From positions 1 to 5,669 of IMG/VR virus record IMGVR_UViG_2778261151_000002: 5,669 nucleotides of DNA; one strand, given 5' to 3'. Both the position numbers and the translations under genes were made by a program. Origin of the DNA: a virus. Its lineage: Duplodnaviria; Heunggongvirae; Uroviricota; Caudoviricetes. Every line of letters starts with the position of its first letter. Within the stretch, counting starts at the first letter, position 1. The notes beneath the pieces were generated by a model that had not been told where the DNA came from, searched no databases, and worked only from the letters and a program-made list of their open reading frames with translations. Of the stretch, positions 1 to 5,669 are shown one piece after another.

Positions 1-296
1 CGCGTTGTTTCCGGTATATCGACTTTGATGTACGGGTTAATTTGTCTGGCGACAGTGGCAAGGTCTTTATTCAGGAGAGCTTTGCATTCTGCTTCGGTAT
101 ACGTTTTACCAGGCATGATGTCTTTTCCGGTGTGTCCGTGACATACAGTCCATACACCAATGATATCTTTGTATGGTATGTAGCTGACACCTTCCAGACC
201 ATCGTTACCACCTGGGCCAGTGATTAACACAGATGCTATAGCAACAGCCCCGCCACCAATAGCAACTGCAACAGCCTTGCGTAATGATGGCGACAT
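1..296 (-). CDS. R: SAR endolysin (phage-21 R-type lysozyme), N-terminal ~98 aa only; 3' end runs off the window
   Basis: Manual minus-strand translation from ATG 296..294 gives [98 protein letters not shown]... Hydrophobic Gly/Ala-rich N-terminus fits a signal-anchor-release domain, followed by an E-x8-D-x5-T lysozyme catalytic triad. Start overlaps the holin stop (TAATG). Not in the ORF track because no stop lies within the window. Confidence 0.85.
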
Positions 297-511
297 TATT
301 CACCTCTCGCAGCCTTACGCTTATCTTCTCTTATTTTGAAATACAGATTCGTCAGATAAGTCAGAAGCCCCAGAAGCAGACTTCCCAGCACACCAATCGC
401 AGCCCACTGTGATGGACTGACCTGATCAAGCCACTGTAAAAACCAGTAGCCGGCACTGCCTGCGGAGGTGCCGTAGGCAATGCCCGTTGATATTTTGTCC
501 ATGGATTTCAT
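296..511 (-). CDS. S: Class II holin / pinholin, phage-21 S-type (71 aa), with dual-start motif MKSM
   Basis: ORF 296..589 trimmed to ATG at 511..509 ([71 protein letters not shown]). Two predicted TM segments and a charged C-terminus. Strong SD GGAGGTG 6 nt upstream. Second Met at codon 4 matches the antiholin/holin dual-start arrangement known for S21. Confidence 0.9.
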
Positions 512-627
512 AGCCTCACCTCCGCAAATAACGGATGGCGTAGTTCTTATATTGGGAAGGGAAAAAGAAGGCCGCAGCGTAACTGTCACTGATGAATTCA
601 GGATAGCCAGTGGCTACGGCTCAGTTA

Positions 628-703
628 TGGTGCTGGTTAACGGACTTGAACCGCTACCCATTCGCTTACAAGGCGACTGCTCTACCATTGGAGCTAAACC
701 AGC
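628..703 (-). tRNA. tRNA, manual fold gives anticodon UGU (Thr); 76 nt with encoded CCA
   Basis: Minus-strand read: acceptor GCTGGTT/AACCAGC (7 bp), D-arm GCTC-CAATGGTA-GAGC, anticodon arm GTCGC-CTTGTAA-GCGAA (U33, anticodon TGT, A37), 5-nt variable loop, T-arm AGCGG-TTCAAGT-CCGTT, discriminator A, CCA. Isotype assignment is by hand and needs tRNAscan-SE. Confidence 0.75.
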
Positions 704-708
704 ATATT

Positions 709-783
709 TGGCGGGACAGCGTGGACTCGAACCACGATAAGAAGGTTAACAGCCTTCCGTAATGACCTTTATACGACTGACCC
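709..783 (-). tRNA. tRNA, manual fold gives anticodon GUU (Asn); 75 nt with encoded CCA
   Basis: Minus-strand read: acceptor GGGTCAG/CTGTCCC (6 of 7 bp, U-U at 4:69), D-arm GTAT-AAAGGTCA-TTAC, anticodon arm GAAGG-CTGTTAA-CCTTC (perfect 5 bp, U33, anticodon GTT, A37), 4-nt variable loop, canonical T-arm CGTGG-TTCGAGT-CCACG, discriminator G, CCA. Separated from the other tRNA by 5 nt. Confidence 0.7.
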
Positions 784-784
784 C

Positions 785-809
785 AATAAAAAATCCCGAA
801 ACCGTTATG
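785..809 (-). terminator. Possible tR'-like late terminator remnant (T-tract with conserved 3' arm only)
   Basis: Minus strand reads GCATAACGGTTTCGGGATTTTTTATT, which matches my recollection of the 3' half of lambda tR'. I could not find the complementary 5' arm (CCCGAAAC) upstream, so a stable hairpin is not evident. Confidence 0.3.
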
Positions 810-933
810 CAGGCTCTATTCCTATGTGCTCTCGAGTTTATGATGCGCATGTCAGCGCGCTTAGAACTTAAAGATGAGGTGGGTAAAAAACCGAAAGAAT
901 GTGAACGGATATAAATCTGCCATTCTTGAGTCA

Positions 934-962
934 AATTTACCCAACTTTATTCAAAAAGTCAA
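934..962 (-). promoter_or_regulatory. Late promoter pR' with Q-utilisation (qut) region, lambda type
   Basis: Minus strand immediately after the Q stop: TTGACT (962..957), 17-bp spacer TTTTGAATAAAGTTGGG, TAAATT (939..934), then TGACTCAAG. This is near-identical to my recollection of lambda pR' -35/-10 and the intervening Q-binding element. Confidence 0.8.
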
Positions 963-1004
963 TATCATGCCGTTAATATGTTGCCATCCGTGGCAATCAT
1001 GCTG

Positions 1005-1628
1005 CTAACGTGTGACCGCATTCAAAATGTTGTCTGCGATTGACTCTTCTTTGTGGCATTGCACCACCAGGGCGTCATACAGCGGCTTAACAGTGCGTGA
1101 CCAGGTGGGTTGAGTAAGGTTTGGGATTAGCATCGTTACAGCGCGATATGCTGCGCTTGCTGGCATCCTTGAATAACCGACGCCTTTACATCTTCCGCAC
1201 TCTTTCTCAACAACTCTCCCCCACTGCTCTGTTTTTGCTATATCAACTGCCCGGCCTGTACCGTGGCAATCTCTGCATCTTGCGCCCGGCGTCGCGGCAC
1301 TACGACAATAATCCGCATAAGCGAATGTTGCGAGCACTTGCAGTACCTTTGCCTTAGTGTTTCCTTCGAGCTTTGCCACACCACGGTATTTCCCCGATAC
1401 CTTGTGTGCAAATTGCATCAGATAGTTGATAGCCTTTTGTTTGTCGTTCTGGCTGAGTTCATGCTTACCGCAAAATGCAGCCATTCCGAATCCGGCTTGT
1501 GATTGCGCCATCCCCATAGCAGCCATCACATCAGTACCGGAAAGAGAGTCAGAAGCCGTAGCCCGTGGTGAGTCGCTCATCATCGGGCTTTTTGGCGAAT
1601 GAAATTTAGCTACGCTTTCGAGTCTCAT
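1005..1628 (-). CDS. Q: Late-gene antitermination protein Q (lambda-type, 207 aa)
   Basis: Full-length ORF MRLESVAKFHSPKSPMMSDSPRATASDS...CRDCHGTGRAV...ECGRCKGVGY...NAVTR, with the zinc-binding Cys cluster and the length of lambda Q. Start overlaps the ninH stop (ATGA). Lies directly upstream of the pR'/qut sequence. Confidence 0.95.
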   Translation of the reverse strand: MRLESVAKFHSPKSPMMSDSPRATASDSLSGTDVMAAMGMAQSQAGFGMAAFCGKHELSQNDKQKAINYLMQFAHKVSGKYRGVAKLEGNTKAKVLQVLATFAYADYCRSAATPGARCRDCHGTGRAVDIAKTEQWGRVVEKECGRCKGVGYSRMPASAAYRAVTMLIPNLTQPTWSRTVKPLYDALVVQCHKEESIADNILNAVTR

Positions 1629-1813
1629 CGTCTTCCCCTCTTGCCCTGTTTGACCATCAGGACGCCGTTAACTATTACGTGACGCTCGCCTTTGCTGTCT
1701 CGGTTGTACTTGAGCACTGTTCCTCTTGCGCAGGAAAGCATCCTCGCCACTTCGGTCTGATTGCCTCGTGTCTGGATAAGAAGCTCTGGTATCGTTTGAA
1801 TTGTGGCGTTCAT
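1625..1813 (-). CDS. ninH: NinH-like small DNA-binding protein (62 aa)
   Basis: MNATIQTIPELLIQTRGNQTEVARMLSCARGTVLKYNRDSKGERHVIVNGVLMV... resembles lambda NinH (GNQTEVARRL...RGTV..KY...H.IVN.VLMV) as I recall it. Position immediately upstream of Q as in lambda. ATGA overlaps on both sides. Confidence 0.8.
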   Translation of the reverse strand: MNATIQTIPELLIQTRGNQTEVARMLSCARGTVLKYNRDSKGERHVIVNGVLMVKQGKRGRR

Positions 1814-2172
1814 ACGTTCTCCAGTTCGGTGATTTTTATTCCAAGCCTTCCGCCTGGTACTTTCACACCACGAATTACGCGAATGTCATCGAATTGCTCG
1901 TCGTCTTCCGCAAATCCGGCGTGGATAAGAGAGTCGAGTAGCCCCTTCAGGATGTTGTCGAGGTCGCGGCGGCGGGAGTCTGGAACGTCTGCGATGACTT
2001 TGATGCGGAGTCGTGCTTTGGTGAAAATATCTAACTTGAGTTGGCGGATGATTTGCTGAACGTCTTTTCGGTATTTCTGGCCTTTATCGCTGATGTAGTA
2101 TCGGCTTCCCCGTCTTCGCCAGTAGGTGTTCAGCGACGGCGGGTATGGAAGCGTGAATCTGTACTCATTCAT
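1810..2172 (-). CDS. rusA: Holliday-junction resolvase RusA (120 aa)
   Basis: MNEYRFTLPYPPSLNTYWRRRGSRYYISDKGQKYRKDV...DSRRRDLDNILKGLLDSL...GGRLGIKITELENV matches the RusA family pattern (LPxPPS.N, RRRDLDN catalytic acidic cluster) and length. Occupies the slot held by rap/ninG in lambda. Confidence 0.9.
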   Translation of the reverse strand: MNEYRFTLPYPPSLNTYWRRRGSRYYISDKGQKYRKDVQQIIRQLKLDIFTKARLRIKVIADVPDSRRRDLDNILKGLLDSLIHAGFAEDDEQFDDIRVIRGVKVPGGRLGIKITELENV

Positions 2173-2939
2173 GCAGCCTCCCCTGTTACTTTCAGCATTC
2201 CGTTATCGAGCAGCTTTCTGGTCAGCCACTGTTGACCACGCCCGGTGATTTTTGTGGTGAACGATATCTGTATTCCGTGATTTGTGTTGACCGCTGTTTC
2301 TTTCACTGTGAAATAGCCGCGATCCATATATTCCTGCATTGGCACATTGCGCCGGGAACCTGAAGCAATAAGGATTTTGTGATCACGCATCCACGCAAAC
2401 AGTTTGTTTGGGCCAATACCAACAACCTTTGCAAAGTTTCCAATCAAAATTCCGCTGGCCTCGCCAACGCGATCGGCAAACTCAACTTTAGGTGCGGCAA
2501 TCGCGAGTTGTTGCTCCAGCTTCACTTTCTGCTCATATTCGTTTGCCCACGCTCTGGCGGCTTCAGCAGGGTTTGTGAAGTCGGGCAAGGCTGACTTATC
2601 TTCTTTTTGGCCACGAAAATAATTGCGAACAAGCTCACGTTGCACTCTCCACGCCGTCTCGTCGCGCAGGGTTTTAACCAGCATCAAATAGCCTGATTCA
2701 GTGAAAACTCGCATGCCACGAGGAGGAATTTCAAAACCCCTTCTAAAGGTATTTTCATGAAAATCAATAAAATATGTATCTTCCCTGTCTATGAAATACT
2801 CAGAGTTTCGCGCATAGCCATTTTGAATAGTGGCTACTGGAACCCCGTGAATATCAGCAATCATTTGATACGTAACAACACGCTCGCCATTAAACTCAAT
2901 CGGCACGATTTCTGCGTTGGCAATAATTACGGCATTCAT
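2169..2939 (-). CDS. Phage antirepressor-like protein, ORF6N (KilA-N-like) N-terminal domain + KilA-C/ANT C-terminal domain (256 aa)
   Basis: N-terminus IEFNGERVVTYQMIADIHGV...PRGMRVFTESGYLMLVKTLRDETAWRVQRELVRNYF fits the ORF6N pattern (P..FTE.G..ML...L....A). C-terminus FADRVGEASGILIGNFAKVVGIGPNKLFAWMRDHKIL fits the KilA-C/ANT domain. Start ATG overlaps the upstream stop (ATGA at 2936..2939); stop overlaps the rusA start. Confidence 0.8.
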   Translation of the reverse strand: MNAVIIANAEIVPIEFNGERVVTYQMIADIHGVPVATIQNGYARNSEYFIDREDTYFIDFHENTFRRGFEIPPRGMRVFTESGYLMLVKTLRDETAWRVQRELVRNYFRGQKEDKSALPDFTNPAEAARAWANEYEQKVKLEQQLAIAAPKVEFADRVGEASGILIGNFAKVVGIGPNKLFAWMRDHKILIASGSRRNVPMQEYMDRGYFTVKETAVNTNHGIQISFTTKITGRGQQWLTRKLLDNGMLKVTGEAA

Positions 2940-3190
2940 GCAACACCTCCTTCAACGACAATAATGCTGTCGCGCTTACCTTGTTCGCCTTCGAAGACGT
3001 AATGCTCGTACTGAACATTGAACCCTAAGTTATTGATTCTTTCGGAAACCTCAATTTGAGGAAGCCGGATAACTCCACTTTTAACCAGCGTTTCGATGGT
3101 ACGTTTCACATTGTCATGACGCTTACCCACCAACTCAGCGATTTCAATGCTGGTCATTTTGATGGCGTTGCTATTTATCAGCTCGTTCAT
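2936..3190 (-). CDS. Small Rha-family-like phage regulatory protein (84 aa), stand-alone N-terminal-domain-only form
   Basis: MNELINSNAIKMTSIEIAELVGKRHDNVKRTIETLVKSG... has the KRHDNV-R-I motif typical of phage Rha N-terminal domains. Start chosen at ATG 3190..3188 (SD GAGAGGA about 7 nt upstream) rather than the ATG at 3196, whose spacer is too short. Stop overlaps the Ant start. Confidence 0.55.
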   Translation of the reverse strand: MNELINSNAIKMTSIEIAELVGKRHDNVKRTIETLVKSGVIRLPQIEVSERINNLGFNVQYEHYVFEGEQGKRDSIIVVEGGVA

Positions 3191-3220
3191 TGTCATGTCC
3201 TCTCATATTGAAAATTCAGC

Positions 3221-3246
3221 AATAAAAAACCCAGCCGAAGCTGGGT
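3221..3246 (-). terminator. Rho-independent terminator (minus strand) immediately downstream of the Roi-like gene
   Basis: Minus strand reads CCCAGC-TTCG-GCTGGG followed by TTTTTTATT: a 6-bp GC-rich stem, UUCG tetraloop and U6 tract. The plus strand has no T-tract after the hairpin, so it is unidirectional. Confidence 0.8.
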
Positions 3247-3264
3247 CGTTGCGTTGGCAATCTG

Positions 3265-3969
3265 TCAGTAGTGATGTAGTGAAGGAGGTAATTCTTTGTT
3301 CTTAAGTCTTACCCATGCAGAAAGATTCGTTGGTCCGTCTGGCTCATTAATATCAACATCTCGTGTGTGATTGATTAAAACGTCTCTCGCCATTCCGATA
3401 ACATACGAGAACTCATGACCGTAGTCGTGGCATCTGCCGGAATAGTTAGACTGAATTTGTCTTAGCGCCGGATACAGTTCGCGGAATAATGCCTGTGAGC
3501 GGTTGGCATAATCCCACAACCATACCAGACTGTTTGCATCTTTTGCAGAAAGCTCGCTGGTTTTCTTCTCGTGATGACCTGCGCTTTTCGAAGTCTGGCT
3601 GAAATAGCAGTCTTCCAGTTTTTCGAACACGTCCCATGCCTGATCGGTTTCGAGCATCTTCGCGTGACGGGCTGCGCCTCGTTCTGTCCAGAGGATGAGC
3701 GAGCGGGTTTTCGGGGAAATTTGTAACCCTCTTAAAGATGGTTGCAAATTTTGTGAGTAGTTTAAAGCTACCCGCAATTCTTTAAGGTCATTACCAACAA
3801 CTTTGAAAAAGTGTTTCCCTTCAACGAAGCGTACTTTGTTCTCATGATGATTCTGGCGAATACGCACCGGCTCAGTGCCGTAAAGCTGCGCCAAAAGTTC
3901 AGTGGTAATAACAGGTATCTGGTTATGGGTGATCGGGGAGAGAGTTTCAACAGCAATTTGAGTTGTCAT
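3265..3969 (-). CDS. Roi-like DNA-binding protein: ORF6N (KilA-N-like) N-terminal domain + C-terminal domain of unknown function (234 aa)
   Basis: N-terminus [37 protein letters not shown]...[35 protein letters not shown] fits the ORF6N pattern and recalls HK022/HK97 Roi. C-terminal ~110 aa has no motif I recognise. Strong SD GGAGGTG 6 nt before ATG 3969. Flanked by intrinsic terminators on both sides. Confidence 0.7.
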
Positions 3970-4130
3970 AGTGACACCTCCGGTAGATGTTTCAGAACAT
4001 CACCACCTTCAGGTGCTAATCATCGGGTGGCGAGACGTACAGGGTTAGCACTACCGGATCTACCAACCGGCCAGCCTTTCGGCTGCCCCATACGCCCCAC
4101 CATAATTCAGATGTGCGTGCGCATACGACA

Positions 4131-4154
4131 ATAAAAAACACGCTTGCGGCGTGT
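4131..4154 (-). terminator. Rho-independent terminator (minus strand) upstream of the Roi-like gene, downstream of the ninE/antisense-TA region
   Basis: Minus strand reads ACACGC-CGCAA-GCGTGT followed by TTTTTTAT (6-bp stem, 5-nt loop, T-tract). Fits the position of a nin-region tR-type terminator. Confidence 0.75.
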
Positions 4155-4290
4155 GTCTGTCGCGGTAGTTATCCGGGGTGCTAATCCCGACGCCAGATTT
4201 TGCTGGCGTATGAGGAATATAGCCCCGGATATGTGTTGTCGTCAACTACAGGCCTTGAATGCATATAACGATTTTGTTATGTTGATACCT

Positions 4291-4620
4291 ATGAACTACA
4301 CTATCGAATACTACAGTGAAGATGTAAGGCTGGAAGTCGATCGGCTTCCATTGAGTATGCGTGCCCGATACCAACATCTCGTTGAACGTATGAAGATATA
4401 TGGCAGCAATCTCGGAGAACCTCACACCAGCGCCTTTGGTGACGGGCTTTTCGAACTCAGAATTAAAGGCAACGATGGGATCGCGCGTGTTTTTTACTGC
4501 ACTCTGACAGGGAAACGCATCATCATGCTGCATAGTTTTGTAAAGAAAACGCAGAAAACACCGCCAGCCGAACGCAAGAAAGCTGAAACCAGAATGAAGG
4601 AGGTTAAGCATGACTGGTAA
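4291..4620 (+). CDS. RelE/ParE-superfamily toxin-like protein (Gp49/HigB-like, ~109 aa)
   Basis: MNYTIEYYSEDVRLEVDRLP...GDGLFELRIKGNDGIARVFYCTLTGKRIIMLHSFVKKTQKTPPAERKKAETRMKE matches the Gp49-like/HigB-like pattern (F.LR......R..Y......I..L..F.KK.QKTP..E...A). ORF-track ORF 4144..4620 trimmed to an internal ATG. Alternative ATG at 4279 (MLIPMNYT...); neither has a clear SD. Stop TAA overlaps the antitoxin gene by 11 nt. Confidence 0.75.
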   Translation: MNYTIEYYSEDVRLEVDRLPLSMRARYQHLVERMKIYGSNLGEPHTSAFGDGLFELRIKGNDGIARVFYCTLTGKRIIMLHSFVKKTQKTPPAERKKAETRMKEVKHDW

Positions 4621-4918
4621 ACGCACTCTCCCCACCATGACACACGACGAAATGGCAGCCAAATGGATGGAAGACCCGGCTTTTAAAGCAGAATACGACG
4701 CTATCGCTGACGAATTCGCACTGCTTGATGAAATGCTGGCAGCACGCAAAGAAGCTGGCTTAACTCAGGCTGAAGTTGCCGAGCGAATGGGAACAAAAGC
4801 GACCGCGATCACCAGAATGGAAAGTAATCTCGCATCAGGTATCAGCGGCCCATCATTTGCCACACTAAAAAAATTCGCCCGCGCTACTGGAAAAAAACTC
4901 CAGATCCGCTTCGTTTAA
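4610..4918 (+). CDS. HTH-XRE antitoxin-like protein (HigA-like, 102 aa)
   Basis: MTGKRTLPTMTHDEMAAKWMEDPAFKAEYDAIADEFALLDEMLAARKEAGLTQAEVAERMGTKATAITRMESN...FATLKKFARATGKKLQIRFV has a helix-turn-helix (LTQAEVAERMGT...ITRMES) and the conserved C-terminal L.IR.V tail seen in antitoxins partnered with Gp49/HigB-like toxins. Strong SD AAGGAGGT 6 nt before the ATG. Overlaps the toxin gene. Confidence 0.8.
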   Translation: MTGKRTLPTMTHDEMAAKWMEDPAFKAEYDAIADEFALLDEMLAARKEAGLTQAEVAERMGTKATAITRMESNLASGISGPSFATLKKFARATGKKLQIRFV

Positions 4919-4959
4919 CCACACCGCGCCGTCATTCTGGCGGCGCACCGGATAAATAG

Positions 4960-5136
4960 TCATTTCCTCGCACGATGTCTTAGCCACCGGATATCCCACA
5001 GGTGAGCCGTGTAGTTGAAGGTTTTTACGTCAGATTCTTTTGGGATTGGCTTGCGTTTATTTCTGGAGCGTTTCGTTGGAAGGTATTTGCAGTTTTCGCA
5101 GATGATGTCGGTGAAACTTCGTCGCTGTCGTCTCAT
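4960..5136 (-). CDS. ninE: NinE-like small protein (58 aa)
   Basis: [58 protein letters not shown] resembles lambdoid NinE as I recall it. Start ATG overlaps the ninB stop (ATGA at 5133..5136). The ORF-track version (from 5196) uses an upstream GTG that overlaps ninB; an alternative in-frame ATG at 5154 cannot be excluded. Confidence 0.7.
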
Positions 5137-5573
5137 GCCGCCCTGTCTCCCCATCGCGCTTTCCACTCCAGAGCCAGTCGCGCTTCGTCTGACCACTTAA
5201 CGCCACGCTCTGTACCGAATGCCTGTATAAGCTCTAATAGCTCCGCAAATTCGCTTACACGCATCCTGCTGGTTGACTGGCCTATTACCACAAAGCCATT
5301 CCCGGCAAGGTTAGGAACAACGTCCTGCTGCTTTAATGCTGCGGTAAACACACACTTCCAGCTTTCTGCATCCAGCCAGCGACCATGCCATTCAACCTGA
5401 CGAGAGACGTCACCAAGGCAAGCCCAAAGCTTTCGATTCTGGTCTAAGCTGCGGTTGCGTTCCTGAATGGTTACTACGATTGGTTTGGTTGGGTCTGGAA
5501 GAATTTGCTGTACTGCGTGAATAGCGTTTTGCTGATGTGCTGGAGATCGAATTTCAAAGGTTAGTTTTTTCAT
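5133..5573 (-). CDS. ninB: Recombination protein NinB (Orf family, 146 aa)
   Basis: [76 protein letters not shown]...[16 protein letters not shown] is essentially lambda NinB as I recall it. True start at ATG 5573 with SD GGGAGAGGGAAG upstream; the ORF-track start at 5591 is an upstream TTG. Confidence 0.95.
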
Positions 5574-5669
5574 GACTTCCCTCTCCCCCAAAGTAAGCGG
5601 CTCGCCAGAACCGTATTGATATTTACTGAGAAGTCAGATCAACTTTCCAGGGCAACAGATCGCGTACCC

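Follow-up and report, generated by a model that had tools for sequence, protein, structure and literature searches.

We analysed a 5,669-nucleotide stretch of a tailed-phage genome of the Caudoviricetes (IMG/VR record IMGVR_UViG_2778261151_000002, positions 1 to 5,669; hereafter the window), which in minus-strand direction covers the nin-to-lysis region of a lambdoid prophage. In the nin region of this prophage, between ninE and an ORF6N/P22AR_C antirepressor-like gene, sit two overlapping plus-strand open reading frames (ORFs). Judged by their sequence, these are likely to form a conventional and active type II toxin-antitoxin (TA) operon carried as nin-region cargo. The pair is an ordinary TA pair, already named by annotation pipelines, and its added interest is modest: a toxin messenger that is probably leaderless, and a tight linkage to a C4/IsrK-type leader RNA.

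The predicted toxin gene (4291-4620, plus strand) encodes 109 residues; its ORF holds in-frame ATG codons at 4279 and 4291 and closes with the TAA at 4618-4620. The putative antitoxin gene (4610-4918, plus strand; ATG at 4610, TAA at 4916-4918) encodes 102 residues and overlaps the toxin gene, which comes first, by 11 nt (4610-4620). Its Shine-Dalgarno (SD) sequence, AAGGAGG at 4597-4603 on the plus strand, lies within the toxin gene, 6 nt before the antitoxin ATG, and has a duplex energy with the anti-SD of -12.4 kcal/mol. The same order, toxin first and helix-turn-helix (HTH) antitoxin second, is found in the relatives. All the neighbouring protein genes (NinB, NinE, ORF6N/P22AR_C, a Rha fragment, ORF6N/ANT, RusA, NinH and Q) are on the minus strand, and the gene that follows the antitoxin is the convergent ninE (4960-5136, minus strand; Pfam NinE, E 1e-42; coordinates from PGAP and the gene caller in loci L004 and L094), 41 nt away. 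A first-pass annotation, made from the letters of the window, had described a plus-strand pair amid minus-strand genes, its members overlapping by 11 nt and the antitoxin having a strong SD, all of which stands as it was read. It had also placed the pair between ninE and a "Roi-like" gene. The order is right and the latter is the ORF6N/P22AR_C gene (3265-3969, minus strand; Pfam), but the toxin does not abut it: about 310 bp, with an isrK/c4-a1b1 and a C4 RNA element, intervene.

Profile searches assign both proteins to TA families. The toxin matches the Pfam family Gp49 (PF05973) over model positions 3-90 of 90 (E 8e-26; 90.3 bits against a cut-off of 23.9), and residues 44-98 of the antitoxin match HTH_3 (E 3e-11; 43.5 bits against a cut-off of 23). 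In addition, a search of PDB matched the toxin to the HigB chain 6af3_A (E 1.5e-5) and the antitoxin to the HigA chain 6af3_B (E 1e-3), which are the partner chains A and B of a single solved complex, the HigBA of Streptococcus pneumoniae (6AF3). The match to 6af3_A suggests that the toxin adopts a RelE/BECR fold. S. pneumoniae HigB depends for its RNase activity and toxicity on R68, R73 and F90, and less strongly on K92 (PMC7984235). When 79 members of the family were aligned with the S. pneumoniae fragment by MAFFT, R57, R66, F83 and K85 of the window toxin fell opposite these four residues, and they are invariant in 78 of the 79 members. Within the RelE/ParE superfamily, gp49 is an established branch, whose members are encoded toxin-first and act as ribosome-dependent mRNases (PMC11980606). 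Thus, membership of the pair in the known gp49 (HigB-like)/XRE-HTH (HigA-like) TA family is well supported by these matches, with the first gene as a predicted RelE-superfamily mRNA interferase and the second as a HigA-like XRE protein, and the family names proposed in the first-pass annotation hold for both proteins. That annotation had also allowed that this may be a conventional type II pair, and RefSeq says as much: it calls the toxin "type II toxin-antitoxin system RelE/ParE family toxin" (WP_024258354.1, with the ATG at 4291 as its start) and the antitoxin "helix-turn-helix domain-containing protein" (WP_000147081.1). Searches of the pair with PADLOC and NCBIfam gave no specific equivalog or system. 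Both genes are under strong purifying selection, with pairwise ratios of nonsynonymous to synonymous substitution rates (dN/dS) among enterobacterial alleles of 0.02-0.18 for the toxin and 0.02-0.04 for the antitoxin.

The pair is an acquired, variable and optional cargo, or "moron", self-contained and oriented against its surroundings. Comparison of nine loci by blastn delimits a portable TA module at 4232-4946. Its right edge is 4946 in every context, which is the last base of a conserved GC-rich hairpin with a 9-bp stem (4926-4946) that closes the module in the gap where the antitoxin and ninE genes converge. The left edge falls at 4228-4232 in phages of the POCJ13 type, where the shared stretch is only 4228-4946. 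In phage Stx2a_F451 the site is empty, homology being lost after 4231 and resuming at 4963, and in Shiga toxin (Stx) 2a-converting phages and many prophages of enterohaemorrhagic Escherichia coli ninE is joined straight to the next element. At megablast sensitivity the module was detected in 31 of 5426 complete E. coli genomes, and only three of these matched at 99% identity or above. When the flanks of 68 loci were clustered, nine left-flank and eight right-flank clusters emerged, and the module is also present in a prophage of the e14/ymfL type. This is not a conserved core constituent of a phage lineage without variability at its site, and the pair therefore counts as variable cargo. The suggestion of acquired cargo at a variable site, made earlier from the window itself, is thus borne out by the comparison with other prophages, through the empty sites, the eight or more right-flank contexts and the small share of genomes. 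The remark that lambda has ninC and ninD at the position of the pair was wrong. In lambda these genes lie between ninB and ninE, the slot in which relatives carry Dam, NUMOD4 or NinD genes, and the pair is on the other side of ninE.

The heptamer CCGGATA occurs on both sides of the module (4225-4231 and 4948-4954), and a target-site duplication left by a transposon-like insertion was considered. We rejected it because the empty site of Stx2a_F451 differs from the window beyond a simple insertion, and because the -35 element of the isrK promoter lies in the TA-side segment. The exact 109-residue toxin is recorded in 245 blocks of the assembly collection, and the window is 99.98% identical to loci L094, L096 and L099. 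An identical TA pair is present in prophage remnants that measure about 4 kb and have insertion sequences (IS) at their borders, namely L091 (CP000034.1, which we take to be Shigella dysenteriae Sd197), L095 and L097, where it stands beside an integrase gene in the order NinB-NinE-TA-ORF6N-Rha/ANT. Note that in L007, from E. coli JNEC-KY176, an extra orphan gene annotated as "HigA family addiction module antitoxin" (4697-5002) separates the antitoxin stop codon from the terminal hairpin.

How the toxin is translated was addressed by comparison with 80 homologous loci from one-genome-per-species contigs, which span many phyla and identities of 38-89%; the counts of -10 elements refer to 76 non-identical upstream regions, with 500 shuffles as control. 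We conclude from this comparison that ATG 4291 is the probable start codon, and we lean towards a messenger that is leaderless or nearly so, as suggested by the geometry of the region rather than by a mapped 5' end. Neither toxin ATG is preceded by an SD, by sequence reading or by duplex energy with the anti-SD, which is +0.6 kcal/mol at 4291 and +0.3 at 4279, against the value given above for the antitoxin. The same asymmetry is found in the relatives: upstream regions of the toxin have a median of +0.5 kcal/mol, with 8% at or below -6, whereas those of the antitoxin have a median of -8.7 kcal/mol, with 77% at or below -6 (Mann-Whitney p = 2e-19).

Upstream of the toxin, a -35 element (TTGAAT, 4255-4260, plus strand) is predicted 17 nt before an extended -10 element (TGtTATGTT, 4275-4283, plus strand) whose hexamer ends 7 nt before ATG 4291. 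The TTG of the -35 is kept in alleles L001, L003, L008, L009 and L010. The -10 hexamer (TATGTT, TATCTT or TATATT) is invariant or nearly so in all close alleles and always 7 nt from the ATG; eight different spacer sequences occur between the two, every one of exactly this length. Across the family, 38 of 76 relatives have a -10-like hexamer whose end lies 4-8 nt ahead of the start codon, compared to 12.9 +/- 3.1 in the shuffles (maximum 24), and the offset profile has a sharp peak at 6-7 nt. Among relatives of at least 60% identity the proportion is 16 of 18. A complete -35/-10 pair (8/12 or better) is present in 26 of 77 relatives, against 3.0 in the shuffles (maximum 9). The promoter spacer and the -10 are covered by a palindrome, ATAACGAT/TTTGTTAT at 4265-4280, presumed to be the antitoxin operator. 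It is the sole perfect ATAAC-N6-GTTAT of the window, is conserved in the close alleles, becomes a perfect 8+8 palindrome in L001 and L003, and has a perfect inverted repeat as its counterpart in 62 of 76 relatives, against 24 in the shuffles. Because this arrangement of operator, -10, 7-nt spacer and ATG is conserved without an SD, a leaderless toxin messenger is the reading it suggests. The first-pass annotation had left the start ambiguous between two ATG codons, both without an SD, and had raised leaderless initiation as a possibility, which has now gained comparative support, with the start resolved to 4291.

Several observations count against leaderless translation. The TA promoter scores 8/12, below the threshold of a generic consensus scan, and leaderless translation in E. 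coli is inefficient and rare. Half of the distant relatives have no -10 at the right distance. Genes similar to gp49 of phage N15 (45-48% identity) carry an AGGAGG SD, and in the homologue on the Acinetobacter plasmid p3ABAYE the -10 is about 24 nt upstream of the start. The namesake of the family, N15 gp49, was itself considered as a leaderless gene and ruled out by its SD, so that the geometry is specific to a subfamily.

In another reading the toxin starts at ATG 4279 (4279-4281, plus strand) and has 113 residues; its messenger would be leadered, made from a promoter further upstream and initiated independently of an SD, and the -10/ATG geometry would be a by-product of the operator. We regard this as unlikely. 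ATG 4279 is in frame and kept in most close alleles, and PGAP picked the 113-residue form in L006 and L009, but this codon lies inside both the palindrome and the predicted -10, and its equivalent in L008 runs into a TAA at codon 3. Moreover, the alignment of most homologues, which come from many phyla, begins at residue 1 of the 109-residue form, whose codon is the earliest start available to the ORF in 40 of 77. Sequence reading gave no better promoter upstream, TATAAC at 4264-4269 being without the final T and without an acceptable -35. In L003, L009, L148 and L149 an ATA replaces the ATG equivalent to 4291, which leaves the upstream ATG alone; however, ten other loci of the same 73%-identity allele group have ATG, and, as a minority within its own group, the ATA form seems to be derived, a start-codon loss likely to silence the toxin. 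The ATA alleles L003 and L009 had been considered as evidence against the 4291 start, or for decay of the toxin, and were set aside in view of a dN/dS of 0.13 and the ATG of most of the group. In this 73%-identity allele the toxin and antitoxin halves differ greatly in synonymous divergence (dS 1.7 vs 0.5), suggesting a mosaic origin. A LexA box in the divergent promoter region, sought by eye, was also discarded, the only candidate being a degenerate TTGT-N8-ACAG that other alleles do not keep.

The second feature of interest is the divergent neighbour of the pair. On the minus strand, the isrK/c4-a1b1 RNA element (4133-4222) consists of a c4-a1b1 match at 4222-4170 (Rfam RF03163; 47.2 bits, gathering score 46.7) and an isrK match at 4209-4133 (RF01394; 80.4 bits, gathering score 50), and it is followed by a C4 antisense RNA at 4023-4107 (RF01695; 71.8 bits, gathering score 45). 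By these matches, 4023-4222 is a leader of the P1 immI/Gifsy-1 IsrK type, and it serves the ORF6N/P22AR_C antirepressor-like gene; the first-pass annotation had missed it. A sigma-70-like promoter is predicted for it at 4216-4245, minus strand, with a -35 of TTGACG (4245-4240) and a -10 of TATATT (4221-4216); it scores 10/12 in the consensus scan, and its predicted start, at about 4209, falls where the Rfam isrK match has its 5' end. The TA and isrK promoters are thus back to back, with -35 hexamers 9 bp apart and predicted starts about 82 bp apart.

This neighbourhood is conserved. All 49 close relatives on viral contigs (at least 72% identity) have a C4-family RNA upstream in the same divergent orientation: isrK/C4 within about 180 nt in 41, sRNA-Xcc1 at about 330 nt in five, isrK at 550 nt in one, and such an RNA at about 1950 nt in two of the POCJ13 type. 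Among the loci with the exact toxin, the 5' end of isrK is in every case 82 bp from the toxin ATG; more widely the distance is 76-82 nt, although the intervening sequence differs. The layout is kept in PhiR5_2 and SCU-104, with a different right flank, in TUM9812, a different type of prophage with Rha genes, and in further loci; in Edwardsiella ictaluri a C4-like sRNA-Xcc1 and a Rha gene lie about 330 nt from the toxin. Two exact-toxin loci retain isrK although a rearrangement has removed C4 and the antirepressor. In POCJ13, the TA module still carries the -35 of the isrK promoter, from which it follows that its arrangement derives from the adjacent one. The simplest reading of this linkage is a single old capture of the pair beside the leader, after which homologous recombination within that conserved leader would have spread the module, with the break on the other side at the hairpin.

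Some loci vary the theme. In L092, L093, L107 and L112, a rearrangement has put inverted lysis and terminase genes in place of C4 and the antirepressor and has left isrK and the TA pair intact. The whole isrK-C4-Rha cassette is duplicated in tandem beside the pair in L008 (2774-3951) and L114 (2081-2925), where the Rha coding sequences called by PGAP cross the RNA elements and are probably over-extended. In the POCJ13-type loci L001, L006 and L007, an insert of about 2 kb between the pair and the C4-like RNA encodes two proteins (141 and 223 residues) without a Pfam match and a DUF805 protein.

We propose the following mechanism for the pair. The weak sigma-70 promoter described above would start transcription at or next to A4291, and in the lysogen the operon would be transcribed from this weak, autorepressed promoter of its own, against phage early transcription. 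The 109-residue toxin would be translated inefficiently from its leaderless messenger and the antitoxin efficiently from its own SD, a combination that would give an excess of antitoxin in a toxin-first operon. A dimer of the antitoxin, probably with the toxin as co-repressor (as in HigBA2 of Acinetobacter baumannii), would bind 4265-4280 over the -10 and repress the operon. The toxin, presumably a ribosome-dependent mRNA endonuclease, would be held in the complex until loss of the DNA or a stop in antitoxin supply set it free to cleave mRNA on the ribosome and arrest growth. The most likely main consequence would be stabilisation of the DNA that carries the pair (addiction), with abortive infection as a possible by-product. 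Some points speak against this scheme. The toxicity of the first protein, its neutralisation by the second, the binding of the operator and the transcription start are all inferred. The hairpin that ends the module, which we tried as an intrinsic terminator and rejected as such, is followed by TTT in relatives; in the window there is no such U-run and the folding energy is unexceptional (z = -1.2), its distinction being its conservation at the module boundary. Finally, the survival of the pair in decayed prophages is compatible with addiction but is no proof of it.

The same proteins could serve mainly in anti-phage defence, by abortive infection or superinfection exclusion: an invading phage would stop host transcription or destabilise the antitoxin, and the freed toxin would halt translation. 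We find this doubtful as the main role, though it deserves weight. A HigB of the gp49 family acts in abortive infection as part of a toxin-antitoxin-chaperone (TAC) module in E. coli O112ab:H26 (PMC11980606); downstream of the window pair, however, the next gene is ninE and there is no SecB-like chaperone gene. The C-terminus of the toxin matches the C-terminal part (50 residues) of the PADLOC model NsnC (E 9e-10), but no system model of PADLOC-DB v2 fits the whole pair, the other matches being a weak capH-like one and generic HTH ones. A promoter of its own that runs counter to phage early transcription is typical of cargo genes expressed in the lysogen and would suit defence; on the other hand, the closest characterised relatives were shown to stabilise plasmids rather than to defend (PMC5906591). 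That the pair is an inactive remnant, or that the HTH protein alone functions, as a stand-alone transcription factor, is very improbable. The prophages that carry the pair are often degraded and rich in IS elements, and the start codon of the toxin has been lost in the ATA alleles. Yet in the window both ORFs are intact and the key toxin residues are all kept, the dN/dS of both genes is far under 1, and the identical toxin recurs in the 245 blocks mentioned above.

Functional coupling of the pair to the IsrK/C4 antirepressor cassette would be a further possibility, in which the antitoxin or the TA complex tunes the isrK promoter, or the antirepressor acts on the HTH antitoxin, so that the state of the TA pair and prophage induction are connected. 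In the first case the antitoxin or complex would occupy a site 56-71 bp ahead of the isrK start (the operator being centred about 63 bp upstream). On this view the gp49-HigA subfamily would be a lasting partner of C4/IsrK-controlled cassettes rather than freely moving cargo, the block of leader and TA genes having stayed united through many exchanges of both outer flanks. The linkage just described is what makes coupling worth considering: a C4-clan RNA lies upstream on the opposite strand not only in the 49 viral-contig relatives but in all the genome loci examined, across the nine left-flank and eight right-flank clusters and with toxin alleles down to 73% identity, the distance from isrK to the ATG stays steady while the sequence changes, and the isrK -35 travels with the module in POCJ13. 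We nonetheless consider coupling quite improbable. There is no second copy of the operator at the isrK promoter, the other six matches in the window having two mismatches each and lying elsewhere. TA-less phages have the same isrK promoter and -35, the latter also seen in the TA-less locus L002, so that the cassette does not need the pair. In fact it is very common without it, since a junction probe containing the cassette matched 3133 of the 5426 genomes, compared to 31 with the pair. Moreover, in the POCJ13-type loci the TA genes have been kept with 2 kb inserted between them and the cassette, and the linkage itself could reflect one ancient capture and homologous recombination in the conserved leader.

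Among known systems, close ones are HigBA1 and HigBA2 of A. baumannii, which likewise have a toxin of the same Pfam family, encoded first, and an HTH antitoxin, but which are plasmid-borne, unlike the window pair. Experiments with the GP49-domain HigBA of this species demonstrated RNase activity and toxicity in E. coli, autorepression by HigA in which HigB serves as co-repressor, and stabilisation of an unstable plasmid (PMC5906591). The same study found no internal higA promoter and called the source of the antitoxin excess unknown (PMC5906591). The toxin of p3ABAYE, which may or may not be a copy of the published HigB1/2 (357 bp against 330 bp), is 65.7% identical to that of the window; it has no isrK/C4 neighbour, and the distance of its -10 from the start implies that this copy is not leaderless. 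The S. pneumoniae HigBA (6AF3/6AF4) matches with both chains and shares its functional residues with the window toxin, and its HigA binds palindromes in its own promoter (PMC7984235). It differs in its distant sequence similarity, in being a chromosomal locus of a Gram-positive bacterium and in the longer N-terminus of its toxin.

As for phages, gp23/gp22 of the Shigella phages POCJ13 and 75/02 Stx are the same module, with 92% DNA identity over 4228-4946 and the same promoter, operator and hairpin; RefSeq describes them as a type II RelE/ParE toxin and a transcriptional regulator. Their module, however, lies between the replication genes and ninB, about 2 kb from a C4-like RNA and antirepressor, with only the -35 of isrK kept. 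The gp49/gp48 pair of N15, from which the Pfam family Gp49 takes its name, and Gp49 of phiKO2 are similarly phage-borne, toxin-first and oriented against their neighbours, with 46% identity over residues 15-105. N15 gp49 differs in having no C4/isrK neighbour and a clear SD (caggaggttatactATG), and therefore a leadered messenger. Lambda cI is a known leaderless gene, and a precedent in a TA setting is the paaR2-paaA2-parE2 locus of E. coli O157:H7, carried by a cryptic lambdoid prophage, where paaR2 was found to be leaderless by rapid amplification of 5' cDNA ends (5'-RACE) and N-terminal sequencing (PMC8630535). It shares with the window a TA locus in such a prophage, a compact divergent promoter region and a leaderless first gene; in contrast, its proteins are unrelated (a ParE toxin and a separate regulator, in three genes), and the leaderless gene is the regulator, not the toxin. 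We found no paper stating leaderless translation for toxins of the gp49 type. The Gp49/HTH_37 modules of Tn3-family transposons are also toxin-first, with a toxin of the same family, and adjoin the control region of their element (res site and promoters), but their host is a transposon, their antitoxin is of another HTH family and they are not phage-related (PMC7157771). Finally, the minus-strand neighbour of the pair, with its Rfam matches to C4, c4-a1b1 and isrK ahead of an antirepressor-type gene, resembles the c4-icd-ant locus (immI) of P1 and P7 and the isrK-orf45-anrP locus of Gifsy-1; those loci have not been reported with a divergent TA pair, and Gifsy-1 has the co-oriented antQ as its upstream gene (PMC4825925).

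For the TA pair as such, these results change little, as the family is known, has characterised members and is named by the pipelines. If true, the layout of operator, -10, 7-nt spacer and ATG without an SD, set against the strong SD of the antitoxin, would offer a testable answer to the question of antitoxin excess in toxin-first operons. The near-obligate position of the pair beside C4/IsrK leaders would point to a conserved leader as a recombination handle for cargo, or hint at cross-talk between TA and anti-immunity functions. Were the coupling real, control of prophage induction and release of the toxin would be wired together, with the leaderless toxin messenger setting the ratio of toxin to antitoxin. 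The survival of the module in tiny IS-flanked remnants in genomes of the Shigella type fits the addiction view of TA systems.

The rest of the window is as follows, its genes all on the minus strand. NinB (5591-5133; Pfam) and ninE overlap by 4 nt (5133-5136) with no gene between them, whereas close relatives have a Dam methylase or NUMOD4 gene there. Beyond the antirepressor-like gene lies a truncated Rha-family gene (2936-3196) that matches only the first 27 positions of the Phage_pRha model and whose equivalent is a PGAP pseudogene in FDAARGOS_943 and VL40. It is followed by ORF6N/ANT, RusA, NinH, Q (1628-1005; Pfam), genes for tRNA-Asn and tRNA-Thr (783-628) and, beyond these tRNAs, a holin-like ORF (296-589). 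The tRNAs, between the Q antiterminator gene and the holin-like ORF, stand where tRNAs and the stx genes are located in Stx phages; in the window there is no toxin gene at that place. At the other end, the last 77 bases (5593-5669) correspond, as in L096, to the end of an IS66-family element, which indicates that the prophage is interrupted just upstream of ninB.

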